From: a virus
Lineage: Duplodnaviria > Heunggongvirae > Uroviricota > Caudoviricetes
Reading direction: 5' to 3' (one strand)
DNA length: 64,000 nucleotides
IMG/VR virus record: IMGVR_UViG_3300021426_000007
Span: 1 to 64,000 of that record
Shown here: positions 1 to 56,700 of the stretch, one piece after another
How the letters are laid out: every line of letters starts with the position of its first letter
Numbering within the stretch: position 1 is the first letter of the stretch
Translations under genes and position numbers: made by a program
Notes under the pieces: generated by a model
The model's database searches: none
What the model was told of the DNA's origin: nothing
The model's input: the letters and a program-made list of their open reading frames with translations, nothing else

Positions 1-127
1 ACTGCCATGTCTTCGGTATAGAACCTAGGGTAGTCATCCATGTACATAGCCATCGCTACCCACTCCGGACCGAAGCCGTATTCCACCGGATTATCTCCAT
101 TGTGCTTTTCGTACAGCTTCAGATCTT
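1..127 (-). CDS. hypothetical protein, N-terminal fragment (gene continues past window start)
   Basis: ATG at 127-125 (MKDLKLYEKHNGDNP...), open reading frame runs off the 5' edge of the window. Confidence 0.35.
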
Positions 128-502
128 TCATTTGTCCACCTGCGTCATAAGCTTGATAAGGTTATCCTGCATCTTCTGGATCTCATCCCGCATGTCAATC
201 CAGCTACCAGAACGCTCATCATACTGGAGGCAGCCCCCGGGAACAAAGTAGCCTGGTGTATCATAGCCACCTTCCCTCTGTACATATTCAAAGTACTTCT
301 CCGCTCTATCCGGATCACGAATGAACATATAGGAGGCATGTTCAAACGCTTCGATTCCACCCTGACCTGTGCAGTTTTCAAAAGTGTAGGTAAACAACTC
401 CACGCCGTCGATGGATTTCATCTGCTCCTCATAAGCGAGGCATTCCTCTTCGTCTTCAAATTCTTCACCGTCATCCGCGATATAAATGTTTTTAATCTCC
501 AT
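128..502 (-). CDS. hypothetical protein (124 aa, acidic)
   Basis: ORF track; start overlaps stop of upstream helicase by 11 nt (operon packing). Confidence 0.5.
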   Translation of the reverse strand: MEIKNIYIADDGEEFEDEEECLAYEEQMKSIDGVELFTYTFENCTGQGGIEAFEHASYMFIRDPDRAEKYFEYVQREGGYDTPGYFVPGGCLQYDERSGSWIDMRDEIQKMQDNLIKLMTQVDK

Positions 503-1874
503 GCTTTATGTATCCTTTCAATGCATCCAATAAGCTCTTCTGGGTGGCGTCCTTACTTTGTAATGCTCTCAATACTTTTTCATCCAGTGTGTTCTCACAG
601 ATGATGTGATGGCAGATCACCGGATGTTCCTGCCCCTGCCTGTGCAGACGGCCTAAACTTTGCTGATACAATTCCAAGCTCCACGGCAGACCAAACCACA
701 CCATGATGTGTGACCCTTCCTGTAGATTGATCCCATACCCGGCTGAGGCTGGATGACAAAGAAGCATTGGTATCTCACCGTTGTTCCACTGCTCGATATC
801 CGCGCTGCCTTTCAACACTACTGCCTCCGGATGCCGTTTCAAAATCCGTTCCAGGTCGTGCTTGTAGGAATAGAACACCAGTAATGGCTGGCCCTGTGAA
901 GCCTCTACGATTTCGTCAAGTGCATCAAGCTTCTGATCGTGGAGCCAGAACACTCCTCCGCTGTCGTCGTAGACCGCTCCGTTTGCCATCTGTAACAACT
1001 TTCCGGAAAGTACTGCGGCGGTTTCTCCGATAACAGCGGAGTCCATGGTATCAATTGACCCCAGCTTGTTCTCGAGAAGAGGCAGGACTTCATCATTTTT
1101 AAACTGCTCATATACTTTTCTTTCTTTAGCTGTCATCCTCACCCTTACCTCATTAAAGGTAATAGGCGGCAGGCTCAGCCAATCTGCTTTACTCATTGAT
1201 AAACAGGTAGAGGAGAGACGAGAATCTATATTCGCTTTTGCTCCCGGCTTAAGTAGATACTCGTAAACGATGTGTCCCTTATGCGCACCCACATTAAAAT
1301 ACTTGCTACGATATTGGCCGATCGTTTTACCGAGCGCCTCTCCTCCATCTATTAGAAACATCTCAGCCCAAAGGTCCATGTACCCATTCGCCGCAGGGGT
1401 TCCTGTCAGACCCCAAACGTAATCGGATAACTTAATCACTGTACGAAGCCTCCGAAACCGCTTGGCTTGCGCAGACTTGAAGCTGGACAATTCATCTATA
1501 ATCACCAAGTCGAATGGCCATCTGCCGGACAGGCTTTCAACAAGCCATTGGACATTCTCCCGGTTTATGACATAGATATCTGCGTCTCGCTTGAGGGCGG
1601 CTGTTCGTTCTTTGGCAGAGCCTAAGACCTTTTCGATTCTCAGGCTTTGGAGGTGATCCCACTTAGCGCATTCTCTAGACCAAGTATCTTCTGCCACGCG
1701 TTTGGGAGCAATCACCAAAACCTTTTCGACTTTGAAATCGTCAAGCAATTCCTTTGCCACGGTCAGTGCTGTCACCGTTTTCCCGAGACCCATATCAAGG
1801 AACAGAGCACACCTTTTATGGGCCCGCAAGAAATCTAGGGCGATAGTCTGATGTGGTTTAGGCTCGAACTTCAT
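492..1874 (-). CDS. SNF2-family DNA helicase
   Basis: motif I LDMGLGKTVTAL, motif II-like VIIDELSSFK, motif III LTGTPAANGYMDLW, C-terminal helicase motifs (LHRQGQ). Confidence 0.85.
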   Translation of the reverse strand: MKFEPKPHQTIALDFLRAHKRCALFLDMGLGKTVTALTVAKELLDDFKVEKVLVIAPKRVAEDTWSRECAKWDHLQSLRIEKVLGSAKERTAALKRDADIYVINRENVQWLVESLSGRWPFDLVIIDELSSFKSAQAKRFRRLRTVIKLSDYVWGLTGTPAANGYMDLWAEMFLIDGGEALGKTIGQYRSKYFNVGAHKGHIVYEYLLKPGAKANIDSRLSSTCLSMSKADWLSLPPITFNEVRVRMTAKERKVYEQFKNDEVLPLLENKLGSIDTMDSAVIGETAAVLSGKLLQMANGAVYDDSGGVFWLHDQKLDALDEIVEASQGQPLLVFYSYKHDLERILKRHPEAVVLKGSADIEQWNNGEIPMLLCHPASAGYGINLQEGSHIMVWFGLPWSLELYQQSLGRLHRQGQEHPVICHHIICENTLDEKVLRALQSKDATQKSLLDALKGYIKHGD

Positions 1875-2124
1875 GCGCTACGATCTCTCTGTATCGGGCC
1901 TCGAGGTTTTCTTTTCTTGACTTCCGGTTCTCTTTCCGCTCCTCGCGCTTAGACCAGAAGGTGTGATCCTCACATCGTTGCAAAGCATCGCAATGATAGA
2001 CGAGACATTTGCGACGTTTCATTTGCTTCGGTGTTAGGTACAACCGATGCTTCCAACAAAAGGCACACACATTATTACTATCCGAATACCAGAACGTACG
2101 TTTCATAGTATCTTGCTCATCCAT
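1858..2124 (-). CDS. small Cys/His-rich protein (88 aa)
   Basis: ORF track; CxxC...CDALQRCEDH cluster; basic C-terminus. Confidence 0.4.
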   Translation of the reverse strand: MDEQDTMKRTFWYSDSNNVCAFCWKHRLYLTPKQMKRRKCLVYHCDALQRCEDHTFWSKREERKENRKSRKENLEARYREIVAHEVRA

Positions 2125-2483
2125 GGTTCTACTAGCTCCCTTCTTTTTTCTTGAGATATAAGCTTTATAGCCGGAAGGCCAAGACCTTTTCGTATAGACA
2201 TAACACGGGAAGCACTTCGCCCGATCTTCACAGCGATATCCGAATCCTGGAAAACATCGTCGTCCGCGTAGTGAGCGATAACCAGCTTGTCCATCCGGCT
2301 TAACCTCTTATCGTAATTCGCTTTATATTCGTTATCTTTTCTCTTGGGGAGAGGTTCGTCCGGTGATATAGCTTCAAGGCAGTTAAAGCATTCACCGTAC
2401 GGACAGCTCAAGCAATACTGGATTCGATCAATAGAGTCACCGTACTGATCTCGATTCTCGATCGCCTTTCCTTTAACCCCCAC
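2103..2483 (-). CDS. Zn-ribbon + HTH DNA-binding protein, paralog A
   Basis: CLSCPYGECFNCL zinc-ribbon-like motif followed by helix-turn-helix-like segment (SRVMSIRKGLGLPAIK); paralog of 2506..2874. Confidence 0.5.
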   Translation of the reverse strand: MGVKGKAIENRDQYGDSIDRIQYCLSCPYGECFNCLEAISPDEPLPKRKDNEYKANYDKRLSRMDKLVIAHYADDDVFQDSDIAVKIGRSASRVMSIRKGLGLPAIKLISQEKRRELVEPWMSKIL

Positions 2484-2505
2484 TTAATCATCTCCTCTGT
2501 CTCCC

Positions 2506-2874
2506 TCAACTGCCGTACAGCTTATCCATTCTTGCCTTTACTTCCGCCGCCATTTGCTTTCGTATGTCTGGAGGATTGCGTCGTAAAGGCGGAAGGCCGA
2601 GATTTAATCTCGCCTGAGTCACAGAGCCAACCCTGAATTTTGAATGACTTGCCATGTCCTTATCATCAACCGACGTTGCATAGTACTGGAGTACTAACTG
2701 CTCCACCGGAGATATGCCTTTCTTCGGTCGGCCACCGTGGGTCCGTCTCATCGTCCTCTTACCACTCGGAGTTCCATGCTTGCTCCTAACGTCAAGGCAA
2801 TTCACGCATTTAGGGAGCGGACAGTTCAGACACATGTTGATCATCTCGGTATTATCGCCAACAATAAATGCCAT
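2506..2874 (-). CDS. Zn-ribbon + HTH DNA-binding protein, paralog B
   Basis: CLNCPLPKCVNCL motif and VTQARLNLGLPPL segment; same architecture as 2103..2483. Confidence 0.5.
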   Translation of the reverse strand: MAFIVGDNTEMINMCLNCPLPKCVNCLDVRSKHGTPSGKRTMRRTHGGRPKKGISPVEQLVLQYYATSVDDKDMASHSKFRVGSVTQARLNLGLPPLRRNPPDIRKQMAAEVKARMDKLYGS

Positions 2875-3047
2875 TTAATATTCTCCCATTACCTTATAAT
2901 CCTTCATCGCATACAACAGACAAAGATCGGAGCAATAATAAACATTGTTATCCATCTCATAATAATCATCGTAGGACCAGATCTCCTGGCCACATACGTC
3001 GCAGTGCCCTACCAGATAGGGGCCTTCCGGATCTATTGTCATAGTTG

Positions 3048-5012
3048 TCAATCCTTTCTATAACTGGAACAGTAGTAGCCATCCGCATTGAGCGGGAGTC
3101 CTTCCATCCACGGAGCACCTTTGCACATAAGCTGGATAGCTTCTTCCAGAGTTCCATGGTCAAAGGGATCCGTGATAATAACTTCATCGTGAACCGTGGC
3201 CCGGACATCGTATCCGGCTTTGTCCAGATTAAAGAGTGCTTCTTTGAGGCAGTCTCTTGCGGTTGCCTGGATGAGATTTTCTGTCAGCTTCCCGCCGAAT
3301 GTCTCTGTACGCTCCCACTTACGTGTCGTCTGGTTCATACTCATGTAGGTCATCGACGGACGGCCCCATCTGTCCTGGCCCATAGCCGCGCCCCAATAGG
3401 CAATCCGTCTTCCGGAAGGAAGAGACATCCACATCACTCCATCCTCCAAGTCAAAACGGATATGGCCTACTGTCGAGATCGTAGGCTTACCTCTCTTGAT
3501 ACACCTAATAGCTGCATCCTCCAGAGACTTCCACAAAGCTACGATGTGAGGGGAGGCCTCTCTCCACTTAGCTACCAGGTCGGACATCTCATCTTCCTTC
3601 ATGCCCATCTTGTCAGCGCCGAAGTTCTTCATTGCACCGACACCCCCGCCATATCCGCAGGCGAGTTCGATGATCTTTCCTTTCGCTCTGAGCTCTCCGT
3701 TCACACCGTGCTTCACGACTGGAACTTTAAAGGCTCGGCTGGCAGATGCGCAGTAGATATCCTCGCCCTCGGAGAAAGCTTTGATTCGCCACTCCTCATT
3801 AGCTATCCACGCAATAACTCGCGCTTCTATTGCGGAGAAGTCTGCCACGATCAAGCGACTGTTTTCCTCGGGTATAATCATCGTCCTAATCAATGCCGAC
3901 AAAGCCGTTTGTACTCTAGGGTAGAAGCATTCGAAGTCTTCTTCGTCTCCGAGTAAAGCCAAATCCCTGGCCTCGTCCAGATCTGGAAGAGAATCATGGG
4001 GGAGGTTCTGCAACTGTACTAACCGCCCAGCCCAGCGTCCGGTCGAAGCACCATAGAATTGAAAAGTTCCACGGACATGATCGTCCTTGCAGCAGGAGCG
4101 GAGGAAAGCTTCGTACTTTTTATTAGAGCTCTTGGAAAACTCCTCTCTCAGCTTGAGTACTTCCTTAGTCTGGTCTTCAGATAGGGACGCATACACATCA
4201 GCAATGGCTTTCTTATTTAAGGATAGAACTTCTATGCCTTCCTGTTCTTCCAGCCACGTTTTGATCTGCGCAGTGGAGTTAGGGTTATCCAGTCCGGTCA
4301 GTTGTTTGCAATGTTCAATCAACTCACCCCGGTACTGGTTGCCGATCTTGATAGCGTTCTCGGCCAGCCGCGGTTCGATACGGACACCCTTGTCGTTCAT
4401 CCGCTGATCGAGACACCAGAGCTTTTGTTCCGAGAAATCCGGCCTCCACTTCAGCAAACGCTGGCGGATCGTATTCTCTGTCTCCACGTCCCTCCGGTTA
4501 TACTCAATGAATGTAGCCCACTTCTCCGGAGCATCCTCCGGTCGATTCCGTGTTCTCCCACCATTAGCTTTAGTAGGCTTGCACGGCTGACAGAAGTACC
4601 GGATAAGCTCTTTGCCTTCCTTCATCTTCGCTTTGTCTTCCGGCAGCTCCAGTGCTGCACCGACACTTGTAAGAGAGAGGGGAAGACCACAGGATGCGGA
4701 GAGAATCATGGTACAACTCCATTGCTCCGGTTCGCAGTACCGACCGAACCACTTAGTCAGACATGTCCGTTCGAAGGCTGCGTTGAAGGCAGTCTTCTCG
4801 ACAGTAGGATCGTAAAGCCAATCAACTATCTCAGTAGGGACTCCATCATTCCTGGTCATATCAATCACTGTGACAGGACCATAGTCACAGGAGTAAGCAA
4901 AGAGCAGGATCTCAAAGTCATCAGACTCGACGTAACGATGTGCACCACACTTGCCAATATCCACAGACGAATAAGTTTCCAAATCGCAACTGAGTGTCCG
5001 TGGCTTATTCAT
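3048..5012 (-). CDS. DNA polymerase, family A (PolI/T7-like) with 3'-5' exonuclease domain
   Basis: N-terminal exo motif SCDLETYS; polymerase motifs KGKIIELACGYGGGVGAMKNFG (motif B-like) and VHDEVII (motif C HDE). Confidence 0.9.
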   Translation of the reverse strand: MNKPRTLSCDLETYSSVDIGKCGAHRYVESDDFEILLFAYSCDYGPVTVIDMTRNDGVPTEIVDWLYDPTVEKTAFNAAFERTCLTKWFGRYCEPEQWSCTMILSASCGLPLSLTSVGAALELPEDKAKMKEGKELIRYFCQPCKPTKANGGRTRNRPEDAPEKWATFIEYNRRDVETENTIRQRLLKWRPDFSEQKLWCLDQRMNDKGVRIEPRLAENAIKIGNQYRGELIEHCKQLTGLDNPNSTAQIKTWLEEQEGIEVLSLNKKAIADVYASLSEDQTKEVLKLREEFSKSSNKKYEAFLRSCCKDDHVRGTFQFYGASTGRWAGRLVQLQNLPHDSLPDLDEARDLALLGDEEDFECFYPRVQTALSALIRTMIIPEENSRLIVADFSAIEARVIAWIANEEWRIKAFSEGEDIYCASASRAFKVPVVKHGVNGELRAKGKIIELACGYGGGVGAMKNFGADKMGMKEDEMSDLVAKWREASPHIVALWKSLEDAAIRCIKRGKPTISTVGHIRFDLEDGVMWMSLPSGRRIAYWGAAMGQDRWGRPSMTYMSMNQTTRKWERTETFGGKLTENLIQATARDCLKEALFNLDKAGYDVRATVHDEVIITDPFDHGTLEEAIQLMCKGAPWMEGLPLNADGYYCSSYRKD

Positions 5013-5311
5013 ATGGCCTCTGCTTTCTCGAACACCTTCAGCATCTTAGGGAATTGCATTGCATACCAATCAATGCCTTGCTCGCAATGACCGTAGGTCG
5101 AGTGGTACATGTTCTGTGCCAGACCAGATTCATAAAGGAAAGCATGGATGATTTCATGACGCTTAACCTCTTTGAGATAAGCGTCGTAATTCTTCAGGTC
5201 ATCAATCTCTCCGAAAGAATCATCCGGAATATATATCGTCTTAGTACTACGGTCTGTATAACCATCAACAGATTCAAACATCGGATCGTCTGCTCTGGAG
5301 AGGATCTTCAT
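5009..5311 (-). CDS. SprT-like zinc metallopeptidase-domain protein
   Basis: HEIIHAFLYESGLAQNMYHSTYGH (HExxH + downstream His). Start taken at internal ATG 5311 because the 5431 TTG extension is antisense to the next gene. Confidence 0.4.
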   Translation of the reverse strand: MKILSRADDPMFESVDGYTDRSTKTIYIPDDSFGEIDDLKNYDAYLKEVKRHEIIHAFLYESGLAQNMYHSTYGHCEQGIDWYAMQFPKMLKVFEKAEAI

Positions 5312-5333
5312 CTTCCATCGGCTACCCAGTATA

Positions 5334-5519
5334 TTAAGATTGTAAGTCTTCAAGTTCTTCTTCCTCCACGTCGAAGCTGATATAGTATTCGATCTGCGCC
5401 CCGCAATTAGCACAGTGGCAGAAGTGCACAAGACCTTCTCCCTCCATGCCTACATCAGAGAAATCAAAGTCGCTGTCCCAGATAACTGCGCGGGCTAAGC
5501 AATGAAAGCATTCATACAT
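5334..5519 (-). CDS. small zinc-ribbon protein (61 aa)
   Basis: CFHC...CHCANC four-Cys arrangement. Confidence 0.4.
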   Translation of the reverse strand: MYECFHCLARAVIWDSDFDFSDVGMEGEGLVHFCHCANCGAQIEYYISFDVEEEELEDLQS

Positions 5520-5521
5520 TC

Positions 5522-5680
5522 CTATATCTTTTCCTCCGGATGAGTTCTGAGATAGTACTCGACAGCTTTGGTTTCATCCATCTTCCTAGGAATCATAACG
5601 ATGTTGAATTTCTTATACTGTTTCTGCCTCCACTCGTTCTTCCGTTGGGCATCACGATCTCTGTACTTCTTTTTCATTTC
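5522..5680 (-). CDS. small basic protein (about 53 aa)
   Basis: ORF track 5522..5731; internal ATG at 5680 preferred because the upstream part overlaps tRNA-Leu. Confidence 0.3.
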   Translation of the reverse strand, partial: EMKKKYRDRDAQRKNEWRQKQYKKFNIVMIPRKMDETKAVEYYLRTHPEEKI

Positions 5681-5704: not shown

Positions 5705-5786
5705 TGCCGGAGAGGGGACTCGAACCCCCACGGATTTCTCCTTCAGATTTTAAGTCTGACGCGCCTGCCAATTACGCCACTCCGGC
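5705..5786 (-). tRNA. tRNA-Leu (anticodon TAA), long variable arm
   Basis: Manual fold of the reverse complement: acceptor GCCGGAG/CTCCGGC, anticodon stem-loop TCAGA-CTTAAAA-TCTGA, T-loop GGTTCGAGTCC, extended variable arm. Confidence 0.75.
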
Positions 5787-5976
5787 TTGTGCGCTTGCCG
5801 CTTAGATTGTCACTCCGTTCAACTCTACGGTTGCGTCCAATCCAGGGTTGGTTACCATCTACCACCATTACGTTGTCCCCATATCGCCGGACCTACCTGG
5901 CAGTTTTCAGCGACCATTATCATTCTCTGTGAGGTGCTGCGCTAACGCTCACATCATCCGGGCGCGACCCGGCCTC

Positions 5977-6071
5977 TGGCGGAGTGACTGAGACTCGAAC
6001 TCAGACACGGATGTTCCTCCGTTACTCCTCGATTAGCAATCGAGTGCCTTACCAATTAGGCTTACCACTCC
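5977..6071 (-). tRNA. tRNA-Ser (anticodon GCT), long variable arm
   Basis: Manual fold: anticodon stem-loop CTCGA-TTGCTAA-TCGAG, T-arm CTGAG-TTCGAGT-CTCAG, 3' CCA encoded. Confidence 0.7.
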
Positions 6072-6078
6072 ATATAAA

Positions 6079-6152
6079 TGCTGTCGGTTGGACTCGAACC
6101 AACGATCGCCCGATTATAAGTCAGGAGCTCAAACCATCTGAGCTGCGACAGC
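6079..6152 (-). tRNA. tRNA with anticodon TAT (Ile, AUA-reading)
   Basis: Canonical cloverleaf: acceptor GCTGTCG/CGACAGC, D GCTC/GAGC, anticodon stem CCTGA/TCGGG loop CTTATAA, T GTTGG-TTCGAGT-CCAAC. Confidence 0.7.
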
Positions 6153-6449
6153 ATGTAATACTCCGGGGAAGACTCGACTCGTTCCACTGCCGCCAGAAGC
6201 GACTACTCTACCATTTAAGCTACCGGAGTATACGTGTGTGGGATTTCGGACATACCTTCACCCACGCGGCTTTGTTGTTTCATCCCGCGACTCTACTGGG
6301 AGCCAGCTGCCATGGGGCCGAAAGGAGGTGGGGGTTCGCGTACCCACCAGCGAAAAGAACAGAGCCAGTTATTACTTCTCGCTACCATGATTACCAAAAA
6401 TACCTGACTGCCATTGGACTTCGCGACAAGTCCGGCGATGACACATAAA

Positions 6450-6521
6450 CAGAGCCGACAGGATTCGAACCTGTGATGGAGGAGTCAAAGTCCTCTGTGT
6501 TACCGACTACACCACGGCTCT
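6450..6521 (-). tRNA. tRNA-Gln (anticodon TTG)
   Basis: Acceptor AGAGCCG/CGGCTCT, anticodon stem GAGGA/TCCTC loop CTTTGAC, T-arm ACAGG-TTCGAAT-CCTGT. Confidence 0.7.
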
Positions 6522-6526
6522 AGATA

Positions 6527-14299: not shown

Positions 14300-14659
14300 T
14301 TGAGAAAGGGGGACGCCGCTGTGCCCGAGTTATCTGAATTGTTGGTTCGAAGAAGAAAAGATCTACACTTGACGCAGGAAGAAGCCTGCAAAAAACTAGG
14401 TATATCAAGAGCCTCTCTCGCTAACTATGAGTGCGGGAAGTTCAAACCAAAAGCACAGAATGCACGTCGTATCTCAGAAGTCTACGGCATCCCTCTCGAA
14501 ACCATCATTCGCAGTGATGATCTAGACGACGAAGATAGTACGTCATCTAATATGCAGGTTCTCTTTAACGAATTAAAGGGAGCTTCGGAAGAGGACATTC
14601 AGAAGGTAATCGAAATCGCCAGAGTCATCCGCAGATCGAGCGGAGGCAGAGAGTGGTAA
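14300..14659 (+). CDS. XRE-family HTH protein (Cro-like candidate)
   Basis: LTQEEACKKLGISRASLANYECGK HTH; probable true start GTG 14321 behind AAAGGGGGA RBS. Confidence 0.65.
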   Translation: MRKGDAAVPELSELLVRRRKDLHLTQEEACKKLGISRASLANYECGKFKPKAQNARRISEVYGIPLETIIRSDDLDDEDSTSSNMQVLFNELKGASEEDIQKVIEIARVIRRSSGGREW

Positions 14660-14790: not shown

Positions 14791-15171
14791 TTGGAAACAA
14801 GGCTGGTGAAATTAATGGCTCTCGATAAAGTTTTAACTGGAGACACCATAGGCGAAAGACTTATTAATGCCAGAGAAGAATGGGGCTATACGCAGCAGGA
14901 TGTCGAGAACGGAACTGGTGTTAAAAGAAGTACGCTGTCAAACTACGAAGCAAACAGGAGCGTACCAAGAGCTAAACAATTAAACGAACTCTGTAAATTC
15001 TATGTCGTTTCTCCAGAATGGATACTGTATGGAACTCCACAGGAGGATGATTCAGAAATATCTCCGCAAACAATCCGGCTAATGAACGCAGTTAAGGGAA
15101 TGAGCGAGCGTACTATAGAAGTCGTCGCCATCGTTGCAGAATCGCTGAAGGATCTCGATAAGCAAAAATAA
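14791..15171 (+). CDS. XRE-family HTH regulator (ImmR-like)
   Basis: GYTQQDVENGTGVKRSTLSNYEANRSVP HTH_XRE; followed by ImmA-like gene. Confidence 0.65.
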   Translation: METRLVKLMALDKVLTGDTIGERLINAREEWGYTQQDVENGTGVKRSTLSNYEANRSVPRAKQLNELCKFYVVSPEWILYGTPQEDDSEISPQTIRLMNAVKGMSERTIEVVAIVAESLKDLDKQK

Positions 15172-15195: not shown

Positions 15196-15492
15196 ATGAC
15201 AATCTGTTCTTTAGTCTGGGGCAGAGATTACTTTGTCCGCTATGTAGACCTCGGAGTGGACCGGATCGGAGGTTACTGCGATTCGAATCATGACGGAACA
15301 TATAATATCTACGTCAACTCCCGACTCCCTGCATGGCAGGTCTGGCCTTCCTTCCTCCATGAACTCGCTCACTGTGCTCTGGGCCACCTAGATGAACGTT
15401 CGTATCTAAGCCATGACGAGAAGGAAAGGGAAGCCGAAGAGTATAAGTATAAAGTTCCGGTCATCATTCCTGTCGATGCGGCTGGAGGTTGA
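15196..15492 (+). CDS. ImmA/IrrE-family zinc metallopeptidase
   Basis: LHELAHCALGHLDE HExxH signature typical of ImmA/IrrE; paired with the upstream XRE gene. Confidence 0.7.
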   Translation: MTICSLVWGRDYFVRYVDLGVDRIGGYCDSNHDGTYNIYVNSRLPAWQVWPSFLHELAHCALGHLDERSYLSHDEKEREAEEYKYKVPVIIPVDAAGG

Positions 15493-15556: not shown

Positions 15557-15600
15557 GGCCCGTGGTAATTTACTAAATTACCACGGGCCGATCGTTTATT
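15557..15600 (+). terminator. rho-independent terminator
   Basis: GGCCCGTGGTAATT-TAC-TAAATTACCACGGGCC 14-bp stem followed by TTTATTTGGTATTTTT. Confidence 0.65.
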
Positions 15601-15671: not shown

Positions 15672-16114
15672 GGTTGACACAGTCGACATGGTCGACACAG
15701 TCGACACTACTTAGAAAAGACTAACTTGAGTTAGCCAAAACTAGTGCATAGTTGTGGCCAAAAAGTGTCGACCTAAAGTAGACAAGTGCCAACCTTGAGA
15801 GGCCAAGGTCGACACTAAAATACTAGACTGTGGTTGCGTAAGTGGGGTGTGTCGACCTGAAAAATGTGTGTGTGTAAAAACAGGTCGACATGGTCGACAC
15901 AGTCGACACTAAGTGATCAAAACCATATGAAAATATATATATTTATGTACTTTTAGTATAGTATTCTATAGATAAATAGTGTCGACCTTGGAGTTATAAG
16001 GTCGACACTGGAGGGCTCAGGTCGACACTGAAGAGAGCACTTTAGTGATTTAAAGTGTCAGGGTGTCGACTGTGTCAACCTATATTATACACAGAAAAAA
16101 CGGTAGGTCGACAC
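15672..16114. repeat. iteron array: about 16 copies of 9-bp (G/A)GTCGACA(C/T) in both orientations, plus AT-rich stretch at 15930-15978
   Basis: Forward copies at 15672, 15681, 15690, 15699, 15807, 15883, 15892, 15901, 16000, 16020, 16106; reverse (GTGTCGACC) at 15765, 15849, 15979, 16063, 16072. The array is bounded by mirror-image tandem blocks; (TG)6 at 15865. Confidence 0.85.
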
Positions 16115-16497
16115 TGATTTTAGGGGGTGTTAAGATTTCTTTACATGTACGTGAACGTGACGTTGAATCACGTCTGACTTCTTCTCTAGAGCGGATTGGC
16201 GTTCCGTGTATCAAGTTCAGTCCGGAGCACAAGGTCGGTATGCCGGACAGACTGATTCTCCTCCCTGGGGGGAAGTGCATATGGGTAGAGCTGAAGACAC
16301 AGGGTGGTCACCTCGCCGAGATCCAGAAGCTTCAGCACCGTAGGCTAGTGGATGCCGGACAAAGAGTTGAGGTCCTGTGGAATAAGAAGGATGTTGATAA
16401 TCTAGTGGCCGAGGTGAAGAGGGAAATCAGTATCCCTCGTGTAAATCAGTATCCCTTGCTCCTAGACATGATCCTGTTGAATGCAGCTTCGGCATAG
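16063..16497 (+). CDS. VRR-NUC domain nuclease (PD-(D/E)xK)
   Basis: GMPDRLILLPGGKCIWVELKTQGGHLAEIQKLQHRRL, the VRR-NUC hallmark. The listed GTG start lies inside the last iteron, so the true start is uncertain. Confidence 0.65.
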   Translation: MSTVSTYIIHRKNGRSTLILGGVKISLHVRERDVESRLTSSLERIGVPCIKFSPEHKVGMPDRLILLPGGKCIWVELKTQGGHLAEIQKLQHRRLVDAGQRVEVLWNKKDVDNLVAEVKREISIPRVNQYPLLLDMILLNAASA

Positions 16498-19910: not shown

Positions 19911-20012
19911 TAATAAATTTCTTTTGAGACCGGACAGGATGTCGAGTCCTGCCCACGCACCATGCCTGACTCCTGTTTATACTCGCATGGTCGAGTGTGT
20001 TATCAATCCTCC

Positions 20013-23025: not shown

Positions 23026-23076
23026 AATAGATGTACCATCCTTTCAGATTTTTGTAGGTTTGTTAGCTTGGTGTTT

Positions 23077-23171
23077 CCGGTTAACGTCTCGCACACGTTA
23101 ACCGGATTTATTAAGTAGTTGACTACTACTTTGAAAACCGATTCTTTTCGAATCAGCTTTCAAAGTAGTAG
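23077..23171. promoter_or_regulatory. palindromic operator/hairpin elements upstream of early operon
   Basis: CCGGTTAACGT-8nt-ACGTTAACCGG (23077-23105) and 49-bp near-perfect palindrome CTACTACTTTGAAA...TTTCAAAGTAGTAG (23123-23171). Confidence 0.5.
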
Positions 23172-23503
23172 GAAAGGAAAATCTTTTCTTTTGATTTGAT
23201 TCTTTCATCAAAGTTTATCAAATCTGTTTTGGTTTTCTTTTCTCTACTCTTTTTTTAAGTAGATAGTTTCCGCAATGTCACGGCGACAATAAATTGTCTT
23301 GCGGTCTTTTCCCGTCATGTCGTGATTTTCTTACCATGGAAGTTAATCCGTACAAGCGCCACATTTTTTTGGTTTTGCTTTGCAAGCTAATGCGGGGAAA
23401 CTTGCCTCTCTATTCAATTATCAAAGTGCCCTCCGGCGATTGTCTCTTTCCATACGTTCTGCACTTCCTACTTGCCGTCTGTTTTTCACTTCCTTTCTTA
23501 GCG

Positions 23504-23523
23504 TTTCAAACCATGGTTTGAAA
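23504..23523. promoter_or_regulatory. 20-bp perfect palindrome TTTCAAACCATGGTTTGAAA
   Basis: seen directly. Confidence 0.4.
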
Positions 23524-23832
23524 TTTCCGCTTCGGCTTTTGGCGCTACTTGTATTCAGTTTCCTTAGGAAAGTTTCAATCGGTTTATCCGGTCATGCTTT
23601 AGCTTTTCGCTTGTGCTCTCACACTTGCCCTTGCGAATTTTGGTGGGCGCATGTGCTTTGCTAGGGACGTCTTAGATTGTGGTGGGCAAAGCGGAAAGGA
23701 AAAGCATATCAATCAGCTTTGGCCCTTGTTCGATTGTGGCCATAGTATAGCGCATACTTTGGCCCTTGTCAATAGGAAATTTTTGTGTTTACAAATAATT
23801 CATAAATCAACAGAAGTATATTATCTTTCATA

Positions 23833-23873
23833 TCATATGAGCAATCATTCATATGAATACCTATTCATATGAA
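23833..23873. promoter_or_regulatory. three copies of palindromic TTCATATGAA within 41 bp
   Basis: 23833-23840, 23848-23857, 23864-23873. Confidence 0.45.
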
Positions 23874-24209
23874 AAAAGAATGTCAAGGCATTCCAAAATT
23901 TCCGTATTCATGTATCCATATATACAGCACTACACATGTATGAATGTATACAAGAATACAGAAGCGATAGACTACAATCGTAGTCGTGACAAGCGCGTGA
24001 CATTCTGGAATGTATAGAGGAAAGAAAGCCCGTCGCGCTTTACCTCTTTGCCTGTTTAGGTATACGGTTTACTAGGCCGATTGTTTTTACTTGGCGCCCC
24101 ACTATTAAAGGAAACTGAAAATTTTTTAACACACTCTCCGCTAGGTAGGGCGCATCGTGTTGCCTATTAAAGGAAAGAGGGCTCGGATTTAGCACTTTAA
24201 ATCGGTAAA

Positions 24210-24270
24210 GACCCCCCATGCCTCCGAACGGGGGTGGGGGGTCTGCATATATTATATATATAAAACTTTT
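24210..24270 (+). terminator. GC-rich hairpin GACCCCCCA...TGGGGGGTC (terminator-family copy 1)
   Basis: stem 24210-24218/24235-24243, T6 run at 24265. Confidence 0.4.
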
Positions 24271-24424
24271 TTCGCATATTACTTCCCTCCAAAAATCCAA
24301 ATTCAGCTTTTTCCGAACTTAAATTCTGAATCACGATTTCACTCGGGTTTGTTCATAATTTAGAAATATCTTAAATTGTGATTATTATACTAGAAGATAT
24401 CAAAAAAGTTGATAACTTATTTAC

Positions 24425-24470
24425 GACCCCCTATGCCCTGGAAACGGGTGTAGGGGGTCTTTTATTATTT
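24425..24470 (+). terminator. rho-independent terminator (family copy 2)
   Basis: GACCCCCTATGCCC-TGGAAAC-GGGTGTAGGGGGTC followed by TTTTATTATTT. Confidence 0.6.
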
Positions 24471-24544
24471 CCGGACCTCGCTGCCTATATTTTTCCAAAA
24501 TCCTAATTATGAACTTTCTGTTAACGATTATGAAGTCAGACCCT

Positions 24545-24572
24545 TGTTTTGCAGTTAACTGTGTCATATAAT
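24545..24572 (+). promoter_or_regulatory. candidate late promoter TTGTTT-16-TATAAT
   Basis: TTGTTT 24545-24550, TATAAT 24567-24572, about 35 nt upstream of the first late gene. Confidence 0.35.
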
Positions 24573-24606
24573 ATAGGGTAGTGAATTTATAGATTGAGGT
24601 GATCCG

Positions 24607-50722: not shown

Positions 50723-53700
50723 ATGGCTAATACAAAAAAGCCCGATGAAAATCAGGTAACACAGACTGATCTTGCGTCAATTCTTGCACCTCCTTCTTGG
50801 TCGCAAGCCGCAGAGACGTGGACTCCGAAAACAAATGAAGAGATAAAGACAATTGTTTCTGAGGCCGAGCAAAAAGGCCAGATAGCAAGAAACGATTCCG
50901 GCGCATTTGAGGCTACGCCTAAGCTGCAAGAAGAGGCTGATATAATTAGGGAGAGAAATAGAGAAAATGACATTTCTTCTATTCTAGCCTCTGCTCCAAC
51001 ACCGAAAGACACTTTGTCGATTGCTAAAGCGTATCAGGACTCTGGTCGTGATATAAATACGGCTAAAGAAGAACTGAAGAGTGTGACTCAAAAGGCCGAG
51101 GAGAGAGCCTCTAACACTTCTGATATCAAACGCCAGAACAAAACTTTCGAACGAGATAAGACTGCCTGGAGAGATACGGAAGGAACTACGGGTTCCAAGC
51201 GTAATGAAGTAAATAAAGACGACGGCTCTTACCACTGGGAGGGGCACGTGGACGAGGATGGTAACTGGGTCTCTGGTCTGGCTGAGTGGGCCCAAGATAA
51301 CGAGGGAAGAATCTTTTCCGAAATTGACGCTTATGATACGAATGACGGAAAAACATTCCTTACAGAAGAGGAGATCCAGGCGCATCAGCAAGAAACGGCT
51401 AACCTTTATTATGACTGTGGGGAGCTGGCGGAATATACCCAGAAGGTTGTTGATGACTTAAAAGCCAAATACGCAACTGCTTCGGATGCGGATAAGGAAG
51501 CCCTCGATGCAGAGATCAAAAGACACGAGAGCAACATTGAGACGTATAAGGGCTGGCAGAATGCCGCGAAAGAGATATACGACGGATGGAGTTCGAGGAA
51601 TGATTACTTCGATTCCATGGATGACAACAAAAAGAAAAACGTCAATGACCCGGCTCAGTATAAGTCCTATGGCGGCGACACCCCGGAGAATATTCAGAAG
51701 GCCATAGACAACTATGAGTATGCTATTAAACAGCAGCAGGATTATATTGACACGAATGCCGGATATGTGACCGACCCTATGAGCGAGGCTACAATAGGAG
51801 CTGAGATAGATAAGCGAAGAGCAGATATCGTAGAGTATAAGGCTCGTAGGGACGAACTTCTGGATAACCTGGCCCTGGCTGAGGCGCATAAACTTGAACT
51901 CGAACAGCAGAATGCCGATCTTGAACTTAGACGTAAGTACGCACTTATTACCGGACAGGACGAAAGTGGTAAGAACAGCGTAATCCATGCTCCTAAGGCG
52001 GATGATTGGAAGAGTATATCCGTTGAGCTGAATACGCAACTTTCGAATGCCATAAAGGCAGGTAACGAAGCTGAGGTGGCTAGTCTCACTAATGAGCTTC
52101 GTTTTGTAGATCAGCAGTTTGAGGAGTTTACAAAATCTGATCTACAACAAAAGTACATAAGTGTCAGTGACGAAGAGCTCGATAAGGCTATTGCCAAGTT
52201 CACTTCCGCCACGGAAGAAAAGCAGGGCAAGGAAGCCGGAAACCAAGAGAAGGCAAGTACTGTTCCTGTTCGTACGGCGGATGATATTAAAGCGGAGATA
52301 GCAAAGCTTCATCCGGAAAAGGACCGAGACAAGTACACCGCTCTGGTTAATGAGCTTAACAGCCTCGGTAATCCCTCAGATACTGTTACAGAAGTTGCTA
52401 CCACTGAAGAGACTCCTGCTGAGGAGAAAGAGCTTACGGATGCGGAGAAGTGGGAGCTTGATATCCTACTTCAGGAAAAAGAACGCCGTGAGATGGAAAA
52501 GCTTTTCCAGACGGAGTATGTAGCGAAATATGACGATCAAGCGGCTTTGAAGTGGTACGAAGAAGCGACAGCAAAAAAAGACGCTGCACTCAATGATCTG
52601 TACAAAGCCCTTAATTCTGCCAACCCACAGGCCGGTAGAATTAGGGCCGCGAATCTGGAAGGCATTGCGGATGATGCAGCAAAAGAGGCTGCTTATGCAA
52701 GGATTAAGTACGAGGAAAGTCTTCTGTCCAGCCCGAGTATTAATACGGACGTAGCAAAAGGGATGGCGCTTGCCCCTAGCATCGGTGATCTTCAGACCGC
52801 GTTTGGGTCGATAGTTCCGTCCGATAAGGGTGGGGCTCGTAACAGGGGAATTCTAGCAGGGCTTAATATTACCGGGGAAGATGCCGACAGTATTATTTCT
52901 ATGCTGAATTCAATCGGTGTAAGTGCTAAAGACTTTGTACCGAGAGTAGAGGAGACGACAGAGGGAGAAAACCCGACCAGCATATACGCCCGTGGCAAAA
53001 CAGCTAGAAACTGGACGCAGTCAGAGCTTGACATTTATTATTCCTTATGGGCGAAGGAAGGTGCTGCTGCGGCTGCGAAATATGCTTTTGAGGTAAACTC
53101 TGTTATTGGGCGCAATTATCACGACCAGATCCTCAAGACGATGATTGACGTAAAAACATATGACGCTGAGCATCGTACTGGGGAATTTGTGACTGAAGCC
53201 CTGCTTGCACCGTGGGTGACCAATCCTCTTAATATAACCGCACTCGCTGACTTTGCTGCTACAACTAGCCAGGTACGGAGAATAGGGACTGCGATGACGA
53301 GTCCTACTAGCTTCACACCTAGTGAGCTTGGGAATATGCTAACGACGGCGCATTCCACTGCGATTCAGGAAACTGCGACTTACCCGCAGCTTGCGTCTCT
53401 GTTATATAACTCCTATAACTCCGCAGTTGGTAGTGTTGAAAGCGCAGCAATTGGTAACGCTATAGGAAGTGGTCTTTCCGCAGCATTAGGTCTCGGACCG
53501 GACGCTCTTGCAGTTACGCTCGGGTCTAAGACATTCCATCTTAAAGATAACGCTGCTCAAGCTATTGCTAGAAGCTACACACAATTATCATTCTTCGGAA
53601 GTGCAGCCGCTCGGTCCTATGATGATTTCATTAAGCGCGGAGTAGAGCCGGGTAAAGCGTGGGGTGCTGCTCTCGCGGCTGGTATGGCCGAAGCTTTCTT

Positions 53701-56700
53701 TGAAGACTTCTCGTTTGATAAAGTCTACGATGCTATTAAGACCGGCCATATTATCGATACGGCTGGGGCTTTCTGGGGTAACCTCGCCGCAAGCTCCGGT
53801 ATAGAAATGTCTGAAGAAGTCTTCACCGAGATGTCTAACTTTATTACCGAGAATATGATTCTCGATAAGAACAGTTCCTTCTGGGTTGCTGTTAATAACT
53901 ATCACGGCTATGGTGGAATGAGCTATGCGGAAGCACTGAAGCAGGCATTAAAGGACGAGAGTGAAGAGATCGGTATGGCTGCCGCATCCGCCATTATCTC
54001 CTCGATGGGTTCAGTAGGTATTCCTTCTGGTATAAGCTACGTAGAGTTCCAGAAGCAGACAGCGCAACAGGCAAAAACACTTGGCGAACGTATTGTCAAC
54101 GGTACCGAAACAGCTAAGGACCTCGGTAAGAAACTCGGAGAGTTCTATTCTACCTTTACACTCGTAGAGGCAGGACAGGAAAATACTCTTACTAAAGGCC
54201 AGAAGCAGGACCTCGATACACTCCACGGTCTGGCAGAGAAGGCTAAAGAAGGCACCGCTACAGCAGAAGAACTCGGTCAGTTGGCACTTCTTGCAAAGCG
54301 TCTGGATAAAGGTTCTTACTATGCCTTTGTTCGGGATAACAAGGACGCATGGAACTACATCTCCAATGGCGATGCTTCTGCTGCACAGATAGACTACCTC
54401 GCTTCTCTCATTGGTGAAGAGAACGTGAATAAGTTTATCCAGGCCAGCCTGGAGAACCCGGATGCATTTATTGCGGACGATTTCGTTGCCGGACTTCGTG
54501 AGGCTACTGGTGTTACAACCGAGGAAGCCCTGAAGATTGAGAATGCTCTCGGCCTTGTAGTGGCTGGAACAAAGACACGTTCGGAAGCCCAGATCCGTAA
54601 GGCTCTGAATGAAGCTTTCAAGAGCGACGCTGCAAAGACCTACGCTCTGAACTACATCTCGGATAAAGTCCAGCAGTTCAACCAACAGAAGGGAACTAGA
54701 CAATATACTCTTGCCTCTGCAAATTCTGAGTCTGCGATTAGCCCGTGGCTGTATACTGTAAATAGCGAAACCGTTACTTCTGACTTTGAGCAGACAATGG
54801 TTAACGTGTGGTCCGGTGTACAGAGAGCAAACGAGACTCTTAACCTTGCAAACCAGGCACGGGCATTAGAACAGTTCAACGCCAAGAAGAGTGCTACTTC
54901 TGAGAGCGTAATTCGTCAGGCCAGAACACAGACCGACGGTATAGAGAACTTCCGTGACGACTCCGATATGGTTCGACTCAACGGGAAGGAATATATTAGA
55001 AAAGATTTTCTGGAGTCCATCGGAAAGGGCATTAACCCGATAACCGGGGAGTCCTTCAAGAACGGTACACCTACGCAGGATCAGGCAAATATCTACTTTG
55101 ACAATCTTCTGCGCAATGCCCTGACAAACGATGCATTCATTAATATAGTAGATGCGTCAGGTACGATGAAGAACTACGATGCCTGGCAGGAAAGTTTAAA
55201 TACAGGAGATATAGAAAATGGACGAGCAAGCGTACGTGTTAGTGAAAATGCCGGACGGAACGAAACTGCGGGTCAAAGCAGAGTCGGCGGACCAGTGGCT
55301 GGATCTGAAACCGGAGGAGTGGGAACAGCACAACCAGTTCATACAGAAGGATCTGGAGAAGCTGGAGGATCTGCTCAAGAAGTAAAGTTAGCCACCTTCG
55401 ATAAAAACGGCGAGCACGACATTACCATAAAAGGTGAGATAACGCTCGATACCGCTGGTATGACCGAGGAAGAAGTTGAGGCACTTGACAATCTCGACTC
55501 CGGTCTGAAAGTTGCAATTACTCAGGCGATGGCCGCTGGTGTCGATAGGATCATGATTGTTAACGGCAGCATGACGAACTCGAACGGCAGAGTCATTGAC
55601 GGCTTCTTCGGCAATACAAAAGTCGAAGGAAAGAGGAAGTATACGATTGTCGTGTCTTCTACCGGGGATCAAGCAGGTCTTACCAGTACTTTCCGTCACG
55701 AATTAATGCACCGCCTTATCAGCGGAATGAACGCTAAAACGAAGAGAGCTTTTCTCAATACGATTCTGGAGACGGCTTTTGCCGGGCGTTCTGAATTGTA
55801 CGAGACGATCTTCGATATATATGTCAAGTACGCATATGGCCGAGAGTATGGTGCGGCCAATATTAAGGACGGTATTCTTTCCTTAAATAAAGAGATCGTC
55901 GAAGACATCGACGAGGAAATGGTGTGCGATCTCTTTGGTGGTATAATGACCTGGGCTCGTCGGTCTCAGGATTCCGCCATCGGTGAGTTCTACCGTGAAG
56001 CCTACAACAGAATCGAGAGATTGGTTGCAGATACCGGACTGTTCGATTATGTCAGAAGCAACTGGGGTAAATCCGAGCGGAACCAGAAAGGTACGCTCGA
56101 TATCTCCGAATTCAAGGGAACGCAGGCCAACGCATTTGGTAAGAGATGGAACGGACGTAAGGTAGAGATACCGTACTCCCGTACAGAAATTAGTAGGCTT
56201 ATGTCCGAGCTCCGTAAGGACTTCAGACATATGAGTGACGAAGAGTTTGCGAAGTTCGAGCAGCGGGTCAACGGTATGGAGACTCAGCCGGGTACTAGAC
56301 AGAACCAGCTCTATACGGCGGCAGCTATGGAAATAATTGCCGAGCATGAACGCCGTGCAGCTGAATCCCGGACAGAGGAGCCTACGGATACCCAGACCGA
56401 AGAAGAGACTACAGAGGCTGCTGAGGAAACTGCGGAGACTACGGAAGAAACAACTGAGGCTACAGAAGAGACCGAGGAGGTACCGGAGGAGAAACCCGCA
56501 GAACGTCTGGCAAATAACAATATGACCGCCGAGACGGATGAGGACTTTGATGCTATTCGGAATACTCTGATGAAACTGAAGAACAAAGAGTCCTTCTACT
56601 TTAACTATAAGGATCGTCAGTTCGTTATCACTGTAGACGAGTCCACTGACTGGGGCTCGGTATATAAGATCGCTCTGACCAACAACGGCCAGCTGTGGAT

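Follow-up and report, generated by a model that had tools for sequence, protein, structure and literature searches.

What role could a dense array of 9-bp repeats play in the genome of a tailed phage? The question is raised by a 64,000-bp stretch of a Caudoviricetes genome (IMG/VR record IMGVR_UViG_3300021426_000007, positions 1 to 64,000; hereafter, the window), in which such an array lies directly upstream of a gene encoding a VRR-NUC nuclease. A first-pass annotation, made from the letters alone, had placed an iteron-type replication origin first among the possible functions of this array. Our comparative analysis favors the same choice. Given a layout conserved across related phages, a repeat whose sequence changes from one phage to the next, a link to primase-helicase genes, and a match to the origins of staphylococcal pathogenicity islands (SaPIs), we consider it probable, at roughly 0.7 and on sequence comparison, that the array is the replication origin of this phage.

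Anatomy of the iteron array

Searching both strands for the unit GGTCGACAC, with up to two mismatches allowed, delineated 17 units of 9 bp within positions 15672–16114 (443 bp), where the rest of the window predicts 1.1 per 600 bp. The exact sequence GTCGACAC is confined to the same region, with all 12 of its copies in the 64 kb (both strands) falling within 15691–16114 and none elsewhere, and 14 of the 16 GTCGAC hexamers of the window likewise lie inside the array. The array of about 16 GTCGAC-centered iterons described in the first-pass annotation is therefore real, with 17 units, while the palindrome at its center is incidental, because the units of most relatives are non-palindromic. Outside the array, GTCGAC occurs twice against 9.1 expected; this depletion reflects a general avoidance of palindromes, because other palindromic hexamers are also rare across the window (CTGCAG, 1 versus 16.4 expected; AGCGCT, 0 versus 7.6), a pattern consistent with the avoidance of restriction sites.

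The array sits in a 570-bp intergenic gap, with an XRE/XRE/ImmA operon to its left and the VRR-NUC gene to its right. A terminator scan of both strands located the left boundary of this intergenic region at a bidirectional terminator (15557–15589), a 15-pair hairpin with T-runs on both sides that ends the XRE/XRE/ImmA operon. The array opens with a left terminal block of four head-to-tail plus-strand iterons at 15672–15707, starting at 15672, 15681, 15690, and 15699 and reading GGTTGACAC, AGTCGACAT, GGTCGACAC, and AGTCGACAC, followed by a spacer palindrome, GACTAACTTGAGTTAGCC (CTAACT..AGTTAG), at 15719–15736. Four dispersed iterons then occupy 15765–15857, namely 15765–15773 (−), 15786–15794 (−, with the degenerate sequence GGTTGGCAC), 15807–15815 (+), and 15849–15857 (−), and within them 15785–15816 forms an inverted pair with 14-bp arms. 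An inner tandem block of three plus-strand iterons at 15883–15909 (starts 15883, 15892, and 15901) is directed at an AT-rich core at 15919–15978, a putative DNA-unwinding element that is 85% A+T and constitutes the most AT-rich 60-mer of the entire window. The right-arm iterons (15979–16028) begin with a minus-strand unit at 15979–15987, which abuts the core and is convergent with the left block at 15883–15909, and continue with plus-strand units at 16000–16008 and 16020–16028. They are succeeded by a second spacer palindrome, CACTTTAGTGATTTAAAGTG (CACTTTA..TAAAGTG), at 16038–16057, by two tandem minus-strand iterons at 16063–16080 (starts 16063 and 16072), and by a last plus-strand iteron at 16106–16114, located 8 bp 5′ of the VRR-NUC ribosome-binding site.

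Several elements of the earlier description stand, in whole or in part. Both tandem blocks (15672–15707 and 15883–15909) have a period of exactly 9 bp, and an AT-rich block does lie inside the array. The claimed mirror-image ends are borne out insofar as 15672–15689 and 16063–16080 are reverse complements at 17 of 18 bases; beyond them, the array continues with the extra unit at 16106–16114. The (TG)6 tract proved to be (TG)5T at 15865–15875 and, among the arrays read, was found besides the window only in the near-identical contig L016, whose first tandem block is one unit shorter than that of the window. A single DnaA box with one mismatch is present at 16085, and a comparison of the array with Rfam matched no RNA family.

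A fixed layout with a changing repeat in related phages

Relatives of the locus were reached through VRR-NUC homologs of 50–72% identity in the IMG/VR, JGI, ENA, and Logan assemblies. Other entry points yielded no relatives: an exact 17-mer of the window repeat returned only chance double matches and no arrays in IMG/VR, a query with the XRE126 protein recovered no related loci from the same database, and a first scan of genome-assembly contigs with three VRR-NUC sequences found nothing. At every related locus found (denoted below by L numbers), an array occupies the gap that precedes VRR-NUC, and XRE/ImmA genes lie 5′ of this gap in most cases (L027 and L124 are without ImmA), with a terminator hairpin visible in several. 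All of the related arrays are built around an AT-rich core, and tandem and inverted units succeed one another in much the same way, but the 7–10-bp unit itself is different in each. Across the 12 loci compared, the window included, these units are GGTCGACAC in the window, ACTGTACAC and CTGTCAC in L006/L018/L019, AGTCTTCAC in L007/L021 (eight tandem copies), AGGGTGCAC in L022, ATCCGCCAT in L024, CCCCTCACC in L025, GGTTGTCAT in L026, AGGTGTCAGC in L027, GTTTGTCAC in L035, GGGGACACC in L036, GGTGAATAG in L123, and GTGACGATG in L124. L016 and L017, which are near-identical to the window, retain its unit. The motif at the right edge of the AT core, ATGTACTTTTAG in the window, is common to several relatives, and under strict matching the iterons that flank the core converge in 10 of the 12 loci; the right-hand copy closest to the core is inverted but degenerate in the other two.

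Among relatives whose unit differs from that of the window, L022 is the closest; its ImmA and DUF2800 proteins are 96% and 92% identical to those of the window. In the alignment of the two loci, the flanks, the spacers, the AT core, and both spacer palindromes (the first as CTAACTATAGTTAG) are conserved, and the iteron cores alone are swapped at each position (AGG-TCGA-CACT versus AGG-GTG-CACT). Judged from these sequences, a conserved layout with swapped cores is what would be expected of sites that co-evolve with one specific protein, and the scaffold of the array would be expected to serve a second, sequence-independent job. The spacer palindromes are kept even where the iterons change, and a second, conserved factor may bind them. 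Palindromes of the form CAACT..AGTTG, similar to those of the window, also occur in L007 (~5575–5590 and ~5868–5885) and L035 (~4592 and ~4897). A rearranged array is present in L020, an L006-type contig, where a 308-aa minus-strand gene with a segment resembling ribbon-helix-helix (RHH) proteins replaces the left half of the array (4181–5240); three ATACCCTTG repeats lie 5′ of this gene, and the AT core and the right arm remain.

Comparable arrays beside primase-helicase genes at distant loci

A broader profile search for VRR-NUC retrieved 581 relatives from IMG/VR. In 54 of 79 newly fetched loci, and additionally in L028, the 700 bp 5′ of VRR-NUC contain the end of a gene for a protein of 550 aa or more, and the large upstream proteins tested are primase-helicases of three types (VapE-like with DUF5906, DUF3987, and D5_N with PriCT_1). 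These more distant phages show the order primase-helicase (750–835 aa), array gap, and VRR-NUC, and in a substantial subset of them an AT-rich block in the gap of ~140–350 bp is surrounded by 4–11 copies, in both orientations, of a 7-mer particular to the locus. The VapE-type arrays (L037, L040, L041, L045–L047, and L068) carry an extra GC-rich element beside the AT block, comprising ACGCCTAAT.. or CGCGCG runs, which is not present in the family of the window.

The same arrangement is found in L028 (5109–10291), a ~5-kb element in a bacterial chromosome with an integrase, a helix-turn-helix (HTH) repressor, a VapE-like primase-helicase, an array, and VRR-NUC. Its 530-bp gap contains GTTAC/GTAAC units (GGTTAC) around an AT block, and L028 is a minimal integrated element, satellite-like in appearance. 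L125, a 3.8-kb contig from an Oscillospiraceae metagenome-assembled genome (MAG), encodes an L028-like VapE C-terminus followed by an array and VRR-NUC (~1000–2000); here the units around the AT block are GGTTCC, and the wing residues of the primase-helicase differ between L028 and L125. A VapE-like initiator of the L028 type was considered for the phage of the window and rejected, as no homolog occurs in the window or the related loci.

Candidate iteron-binding proteins

To narrow down the protein that reads the repeat, we used phage pairs with different iterons and asked which candidate proteins were near-identical between them. Between L007 and L035, the equivalent of the 137-aa HTH protein is 96.9% identical, ImmA is 96.8% identical, the 86-aa RHH protein has the same DNA-reading beta-strand (TTRVFVRLNN), and the 87-aa RHH-like protein differs by one residue in its beta-strand. 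Between the window and L022, ImmA is 96% and the 196-aa Zn-ribbon protein 91% identical. On this logic, ImmA, the 137-aa HTH protein, the 86-aa RHH protein, and the 196-aa Zn-ribbon protein were all rejected as binders, and an 81-aa HTH protein (HTH26_81) was dropped since it is not universal, L007 and L035 having no true homolog. The titration of an XRE, RHH, or Zn-ribbon regulator, which the first-pass annotation had offered as an alternative, is mostly excluded by the same pairs. The iteron motif was also not found in the divergent switch-promoter region of the lysis-lysogeny control at 9 loci, save for a single 1-mismatch match in L019, making CI- and Cro-type XRE proteins unlikely binders; neither the switch-promoter site nor the repressor co-variation that would mark an immunity operator array of the CI/Cro or ImmR type was recovered.

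The first-pass annotation had remarked that no initiator gene is adjacent to the array, which holds true for the window, yet the primase-helicase gene of the phage sits 3–5 kb past its left edge. Contig L029, 100% identical to positions 1–5627 of the window, extends leftward beyond it and encodes a 657-aa primase-helicase (Pfam PriCT_1 and AAA_25), followed by one or two tyrosine integrases. The primase-helicase lies 3.1–5.0 kb past the edge, and hence ~19–21 kb from the array. Through shared contigs, it could be paired with an array in four phages (window/L029, L022/P0065, L007/L116, and L035/L117). Conservation across the family is lowest over its last ~100 aa (column means of 0.41–0.45 versus 0.53–0.77 elsewhere), and between L116 and L117, the partners of L007 and L035, the C-terminal region is 53–55% identical versus 88–99% over most of the remainder and 76% in a linker segment. 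In the available phage pairs, a difference in the iterons is always accompanied by one in the C-terminal domain. Modeled with AlphaFold2 from an alignment of 37 sequences, the final 110 aa adopt a classic winged-helix topology with good confidence (predicted local distance difference test score, pLDDT, of 88). This domain is predicted to be a winged helix most like those of RepE and Pi, initiators that bind iterons, of ORC/Cdc6, and of the P4 origin-binding domain, while the helicase core is related to RSF1010 RepA. At the VapE-type loci, similar recognition regions accompany similar motifs, as in the GGnACAA group. We regard the predicted C-terminal winged helix of the phage primase-helicase as the likeliest candidate binder, an assignment to which we give even odds.

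Proposed mechanism and comparison with known origins

The sequences directly show oriented repeats, an AT core, a layout that holds while the repeat changes, and a link to primase-helicase genes in other phages; from these we infer a mechanism in which the array would be bound, melted, and used as the start of replication. The 9-bp units would be bound by a phage-encoded initiator, probably with one protomer per unit. Because the iterons on either side point at the AT core, initiator assemblies would load on both flanks of this 60-bp segment and melt it, and replication would start there. The foremost candidate for the initiator is the 657-aa primase-helicase, combining a PriCT_1 primase module, an RSF1010-RepA-like helicase core, and the predicted C-terminal winged helix, and it would work like the alpha protein of P4 and the Rep proteins of SaPIs.

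SaPI origins consist of 6–12 short iterons just downstream of rep, arranged around a central AT-rich region with opposed iterons on each side, and are bound by the C-terminal winged helix of the Rep helicase (PMC9371898). The array resembles them in having many short iterons in both orientations, in two sets around an AT-rich center, with opposed copies next to it (15883–15909, plus strand, and 15979–15987, minus strand). The iteron sequence is likewise element-specific, with 12 different units at 12 loci, and the candidate initiator is again a helicase, whose C-terminus is predicted to form a winged helix. The SaPI-like position of the origin directly after the initiator gene is seen at the distant VRR-NUC loci, where the array directly follows the primase-helicase gene, and in L028, but not in the family of the window. 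The array further differs in its unit length (9 bp versus 5–6 bp), in its number of units (17 versus 6–12), and in its extent, spanning ~440 bp at a distance of ~20 kb from the candidate initiator gene, and the candidate helicase core is RSF1010 RepA-like rather than of the SaPI Rep helicase class (PMC9371898). An organization of primase, helicase, and C-terminal winged helix is shared by P4 alpha and pRN1 ORF904 (PMC2777425). The candidate initiator follows the same organization as P4 alpha, albeit with no sequence homology and with different primase and helicase families (PriCT_1 and a RepA-like core where P4 has DnaG-like and SF3 modules); P4 ori/crr also has far fewer iterons.

The iterons of plasmids such as F (RepE), R6K (Pi), and pPS10 (RepA) are direct repeats of 17–22 bp located beside the rep gene and accompanied by DnaA boxes. 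The array differs from these in its 9-bp units of mixed orientation, its one 1-mismatch DnaA box (16085), and its lack of an adjacent rep gene, and on these features it does not match plasmid Rep/iteron origins of the RepE, Pi, and RepA class.

Alternative explanations

Among the other explanations for such an array, the most probable is an operator or titration array coated by a small regulator (the 87-aa RHH-like protein, an XRE protein, or an unseen factor) that would control VRR-NUC or leftward transcription into the terminator, or would buffer the regulator level in the manner of omega and ParG. Because the VRR-NUC gene stands alone on the plus strand, with a terminator before it, its promoter must lie inside the array, where promoter-like hexamers do overlap iterons at 16108–16136 (+), 16111–16084 (−), and 15985–15958 (−). 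Two RHH-like genes stand just past VRR-NUC, short units in tandem and inverted order are known targets of RHH proteins, with the omega and ParG repressors binding arrays of 7–8-bp units, and the 87-aa RHH-like protein is highly variable, at 29–41% identity among relatives. The arrays of omega (pSM19035) and ParG (TP228) also share with the window array very short tandem and inverted units with a sub-helical-turn period, on which the protein can coat the DNA; they differ in being promoters or centromeres bound by RHH dimers, without a central AT-rich core, whereas here a conserved RHH protein shows no co-variation with the repeat and a partition ATPase was not found. We nonetheless judge an operator unlikely. 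An identical architecture follows primase-helicase genes within the replication operons of many phages, and the 5-kb element L028 has an array though it encodes only an integrase, an HTH protein, a VapE-like protein, and VRR-NUC. The beta-strand is identical in the 86-aa RHH protein and one residue off in the 87-aa RHH-like protein in two phages with different iterons, and the motif is missing from the switch region at the 9 loci bar the one 1-mismatch match in L019. A 60-bp core of 85% A+T with convergent iterons is unnecessary for an operator, and the count of promoter-like sites (10, with 6.2 ± 2.3 expected) is not significantly raised.

Two further roles are far less probable. A parS/parC-like centromere of an extrachromosomal prophage, bound by a small centromere-binding protein, had been proposed earlier as a partition site and would account for the resemblance of the units to type Ib and type II centromeres, which are built of short units in tandem and inverted orientation, and for the nearby RHH-like genes. 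It is very improbable, given that 36 open reading frames (ORFs) searched against Pfam or PHROGs gave no match to the ParA, ParM, or TubZ families and none was seen among the called flank genes, with ~10 kb of the genome unseen. Adjacent genes for a partition NTPase and a centromere-binding protein, as in type I, II, or III systems, were thus not found, one or two tyrosine integrases lie beside the primase-helicase, the same array is present in the chromosome-integrated L028, and a central AT-rich core is unnecessary for a centromere. More improbable still is a recombination or packaging site, either an attP with arm-type integrase sites or a pac/cos site bound by the small terminase. Regions of attP do have a similar general layout, spanning 250–450 bp with several 9–11-bp arm sites in both orientations around an AT-rich core, and the phage has an integrase with an N-terminal domain match to Phage_int_SAM_3. 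However, this integrase is ~22 kb away from the array and has its own non-coding flank of ~500 bp; an attP would be adjacent to int and split on integration, and the array of the integrated L028 is unbroken and has kept both arms, which argues strongly against an attP. In other phages the array lies in the middle of a replication operon, and the terminase genes, near which pac/cos would be expected, are 9–10 kb away (24.6–27.2 kb).

The replication origin itself, and the primase-helicase as its binder, must be set against several observations. Unlike SaPI origins and the distant relatives, the array is separated by ~20 kb from the presumed initiator gene. At least five repeat copies were found upstream in just 4 of 75 VRR-NUC loci from genome assemblies, versus 1 of 66 control windows, and high-copy arrays occur in only a subset of VRR-NUC loci. 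The GC-skew check suggested in the first-pass annotation does not single out the array: the cumulative curve has near-equal minima at ~14 kb (−948) and 23.6 kb (−963), both coinciding with switches in transcription direction. With regard to the binder, VRR-NUC (60–71% identical among relatives) and the 87-aa RHH-like protein (29–41%) both pass through the strict exclusion by phage pairs. The case for the winged helix is correlative, in that every available phage pair differs in both the iteron and the C-terminal domain, and C-termini are often variable anyway. At the VapE-type loci, domain and motif are weakly associated, with relatedness as a confounder (partial Mantel r 0.19, p ~0.03).

The VRR-NUC gene and its association with the array

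The start of VRR-NUC had been annotated inside the last iteron. Homologs of the nuclease start with MSIKVRE, which aligns with ISLHVRE in the window from an ATT codon at 16135, and the gene therefore begins past the array; GTG 16063 is merely the first start codon of the long ORF. With this inferred ATT start, the gene encodes 120 aa (16135–16497, plus strand) behind the ribosome-binding site GGGGGTG at 16123–16129. Non-ATG starts recur in L006 (~5998–6006) and L020 (~5470), with ACG or a downstream ATT where relatives have ATG, which suggests deliberately weak translation or gene decay in these lineages.

That VRR-NUC is directly 3′ of the array in all relatives examined follows from the use of this gene to find the loci. 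The nuclease is 60–71% identical between phages whose neighbor genes are 90–97% identical. The primase-helicases tied to the array and VRR-NUC belong to four unrelated types, three of them adjacent (VapE-like, DUF3987, and D5-like) and one 20 kb off (PriCT_1/RepA-like), and in the phage family of the window the array and VRR-NUC have been jointly separated from the initiator gene. That the origin and VRR-NUC form a functional unit rather than being chance neighbors is a tentative idea, which we hold to be rather doubtful. One possibility is that the nuclease works on the origin itself, cutting, for example, initiation bubbles or D-loops and thereby switching replication from the theta mode to a concatemer-forming one; alternatively, its expression could be set by initiator occupancy of the last iterons together with the weak ATT start. 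A second, compatible idea is that iteron-core swapping lets co-infecting relatives and satellites avoid competing for, or hijacking, each other's initiator.

Genome context and other features of the window

The window is part of a ~84-kb temperate gut or rumen phage, the longest contig with the 657-aa primase-helicase being 84 kb. Its hosts are probably Oscillospiraceae or other Clostridia; the closest genome-assembly match of the VRR-NUC protein is to an Oscillospiraceae MAG. The phage has no close relative among cultured phages: a blastn search of the region against cultured-phage DNA (INPHARED) returned nothing, and the terminase shares no more than 47% identity with its counterparts in Staphylococcus epidermidis phages. 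To the left of the array, two XRE-type HTH genes (14300–14659 and 14791–15171, plus strand) share an operon with a short ImmA/M78 peptidase gene (15196–15492, plus strand). A leftward early operon then runs from ~14.1 kb down to 0.5 kb, encoding the 137-aa HTH and 196-aa Zn-ribbon-like proteins, SPFH, RNA ligase, and DUF2800 proteins, an Enc34-type single-stranded DNA-binding protein, DNA polymerase A, and a SNF2 helicase. Four minus-strand tRNA genes (Leu-TAA, Ser-GCT, Ile-TAT, and Gln-TTG) lie at 5705–6522, in the interval between DNA polymerase A and the single-stranded DNA-binding protein. To the right of the array, small leftward genes occupy 16.4–23 kb; between genes of this operon, a match to the Pistol self-cleaving ribozyme (RF02679) was detected at 19925–19996 on the minus strand, scoring 51.5 bits versus a gathering score of 34.5. 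From 25.7 kb onward, the terminase, a P22-like portal, and an endolysin are encoded on the plus strand. No PHROGs or Pfam family was found for the two RHH-like proteins, the 196-aa protein, or a 546-aa ORF.

The leftward operon and the late genes are separated by 1.5 kb of mostly non-coding DNA at 23030–24600, with very AT-rich stretches, three TCATATGA palindromes at 23833–23873, and GC-rich hairpins at 24207–24244 and 24425–24462. The global minimum of the cumulative GC skew falls within it, at 23630, and L022 and L024 have gaps of comparable size at the same position. We considered this region (23.0–24.6 kb) as a rival origin and set it aside, as it has palindromes and hairpins without an iteron array around an AT core. 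At the far end of the window (50750–64000), minus-strand ORFs have no Pfam match (five large ones were tested, of which the 546-aa ORF also has no PHROGs match). The plus strand of this segment is G- and A-rich (GC skew +0.09, AT skew +0.17), opposite to the skew over the minus-strand genes at 0.5–13.1 kb (GC skew −0.14).

Implications for phage replication

As a probable origin, the array would extend the known SaPI-like class, with particular traits of its own: 17 units of 9 bp, cores that swap on a constant scaffold, a separation of ~20 kb from the candidate initiator, and VRR-NUC directly downstream in all cases, among loci that were found through VRR-NUC. Should the origin assignment be wrong, it would remain a protein-binding platform of unusual size. 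Few origins have been mapped in phages of anaerobic gut and rumen bacteria, and the array offers a precise, testable one for this ~84-kb temperate lineage. It also provides a search rule, by which a locus-specific short repeat around an AT block just 5′ of VRR-NUC would point to likely origins, including that of at least one small integrated element. At least 12 natural iteron variants on one scaffold, each with a variable winged-helix domain, furnish material for a recognition code and might yield orthogonal origin–initiator pairs for Clostridia. The same material could further reveal in what ways the replication machinery of one phage or satellite is avoided or exploited by its relatives.

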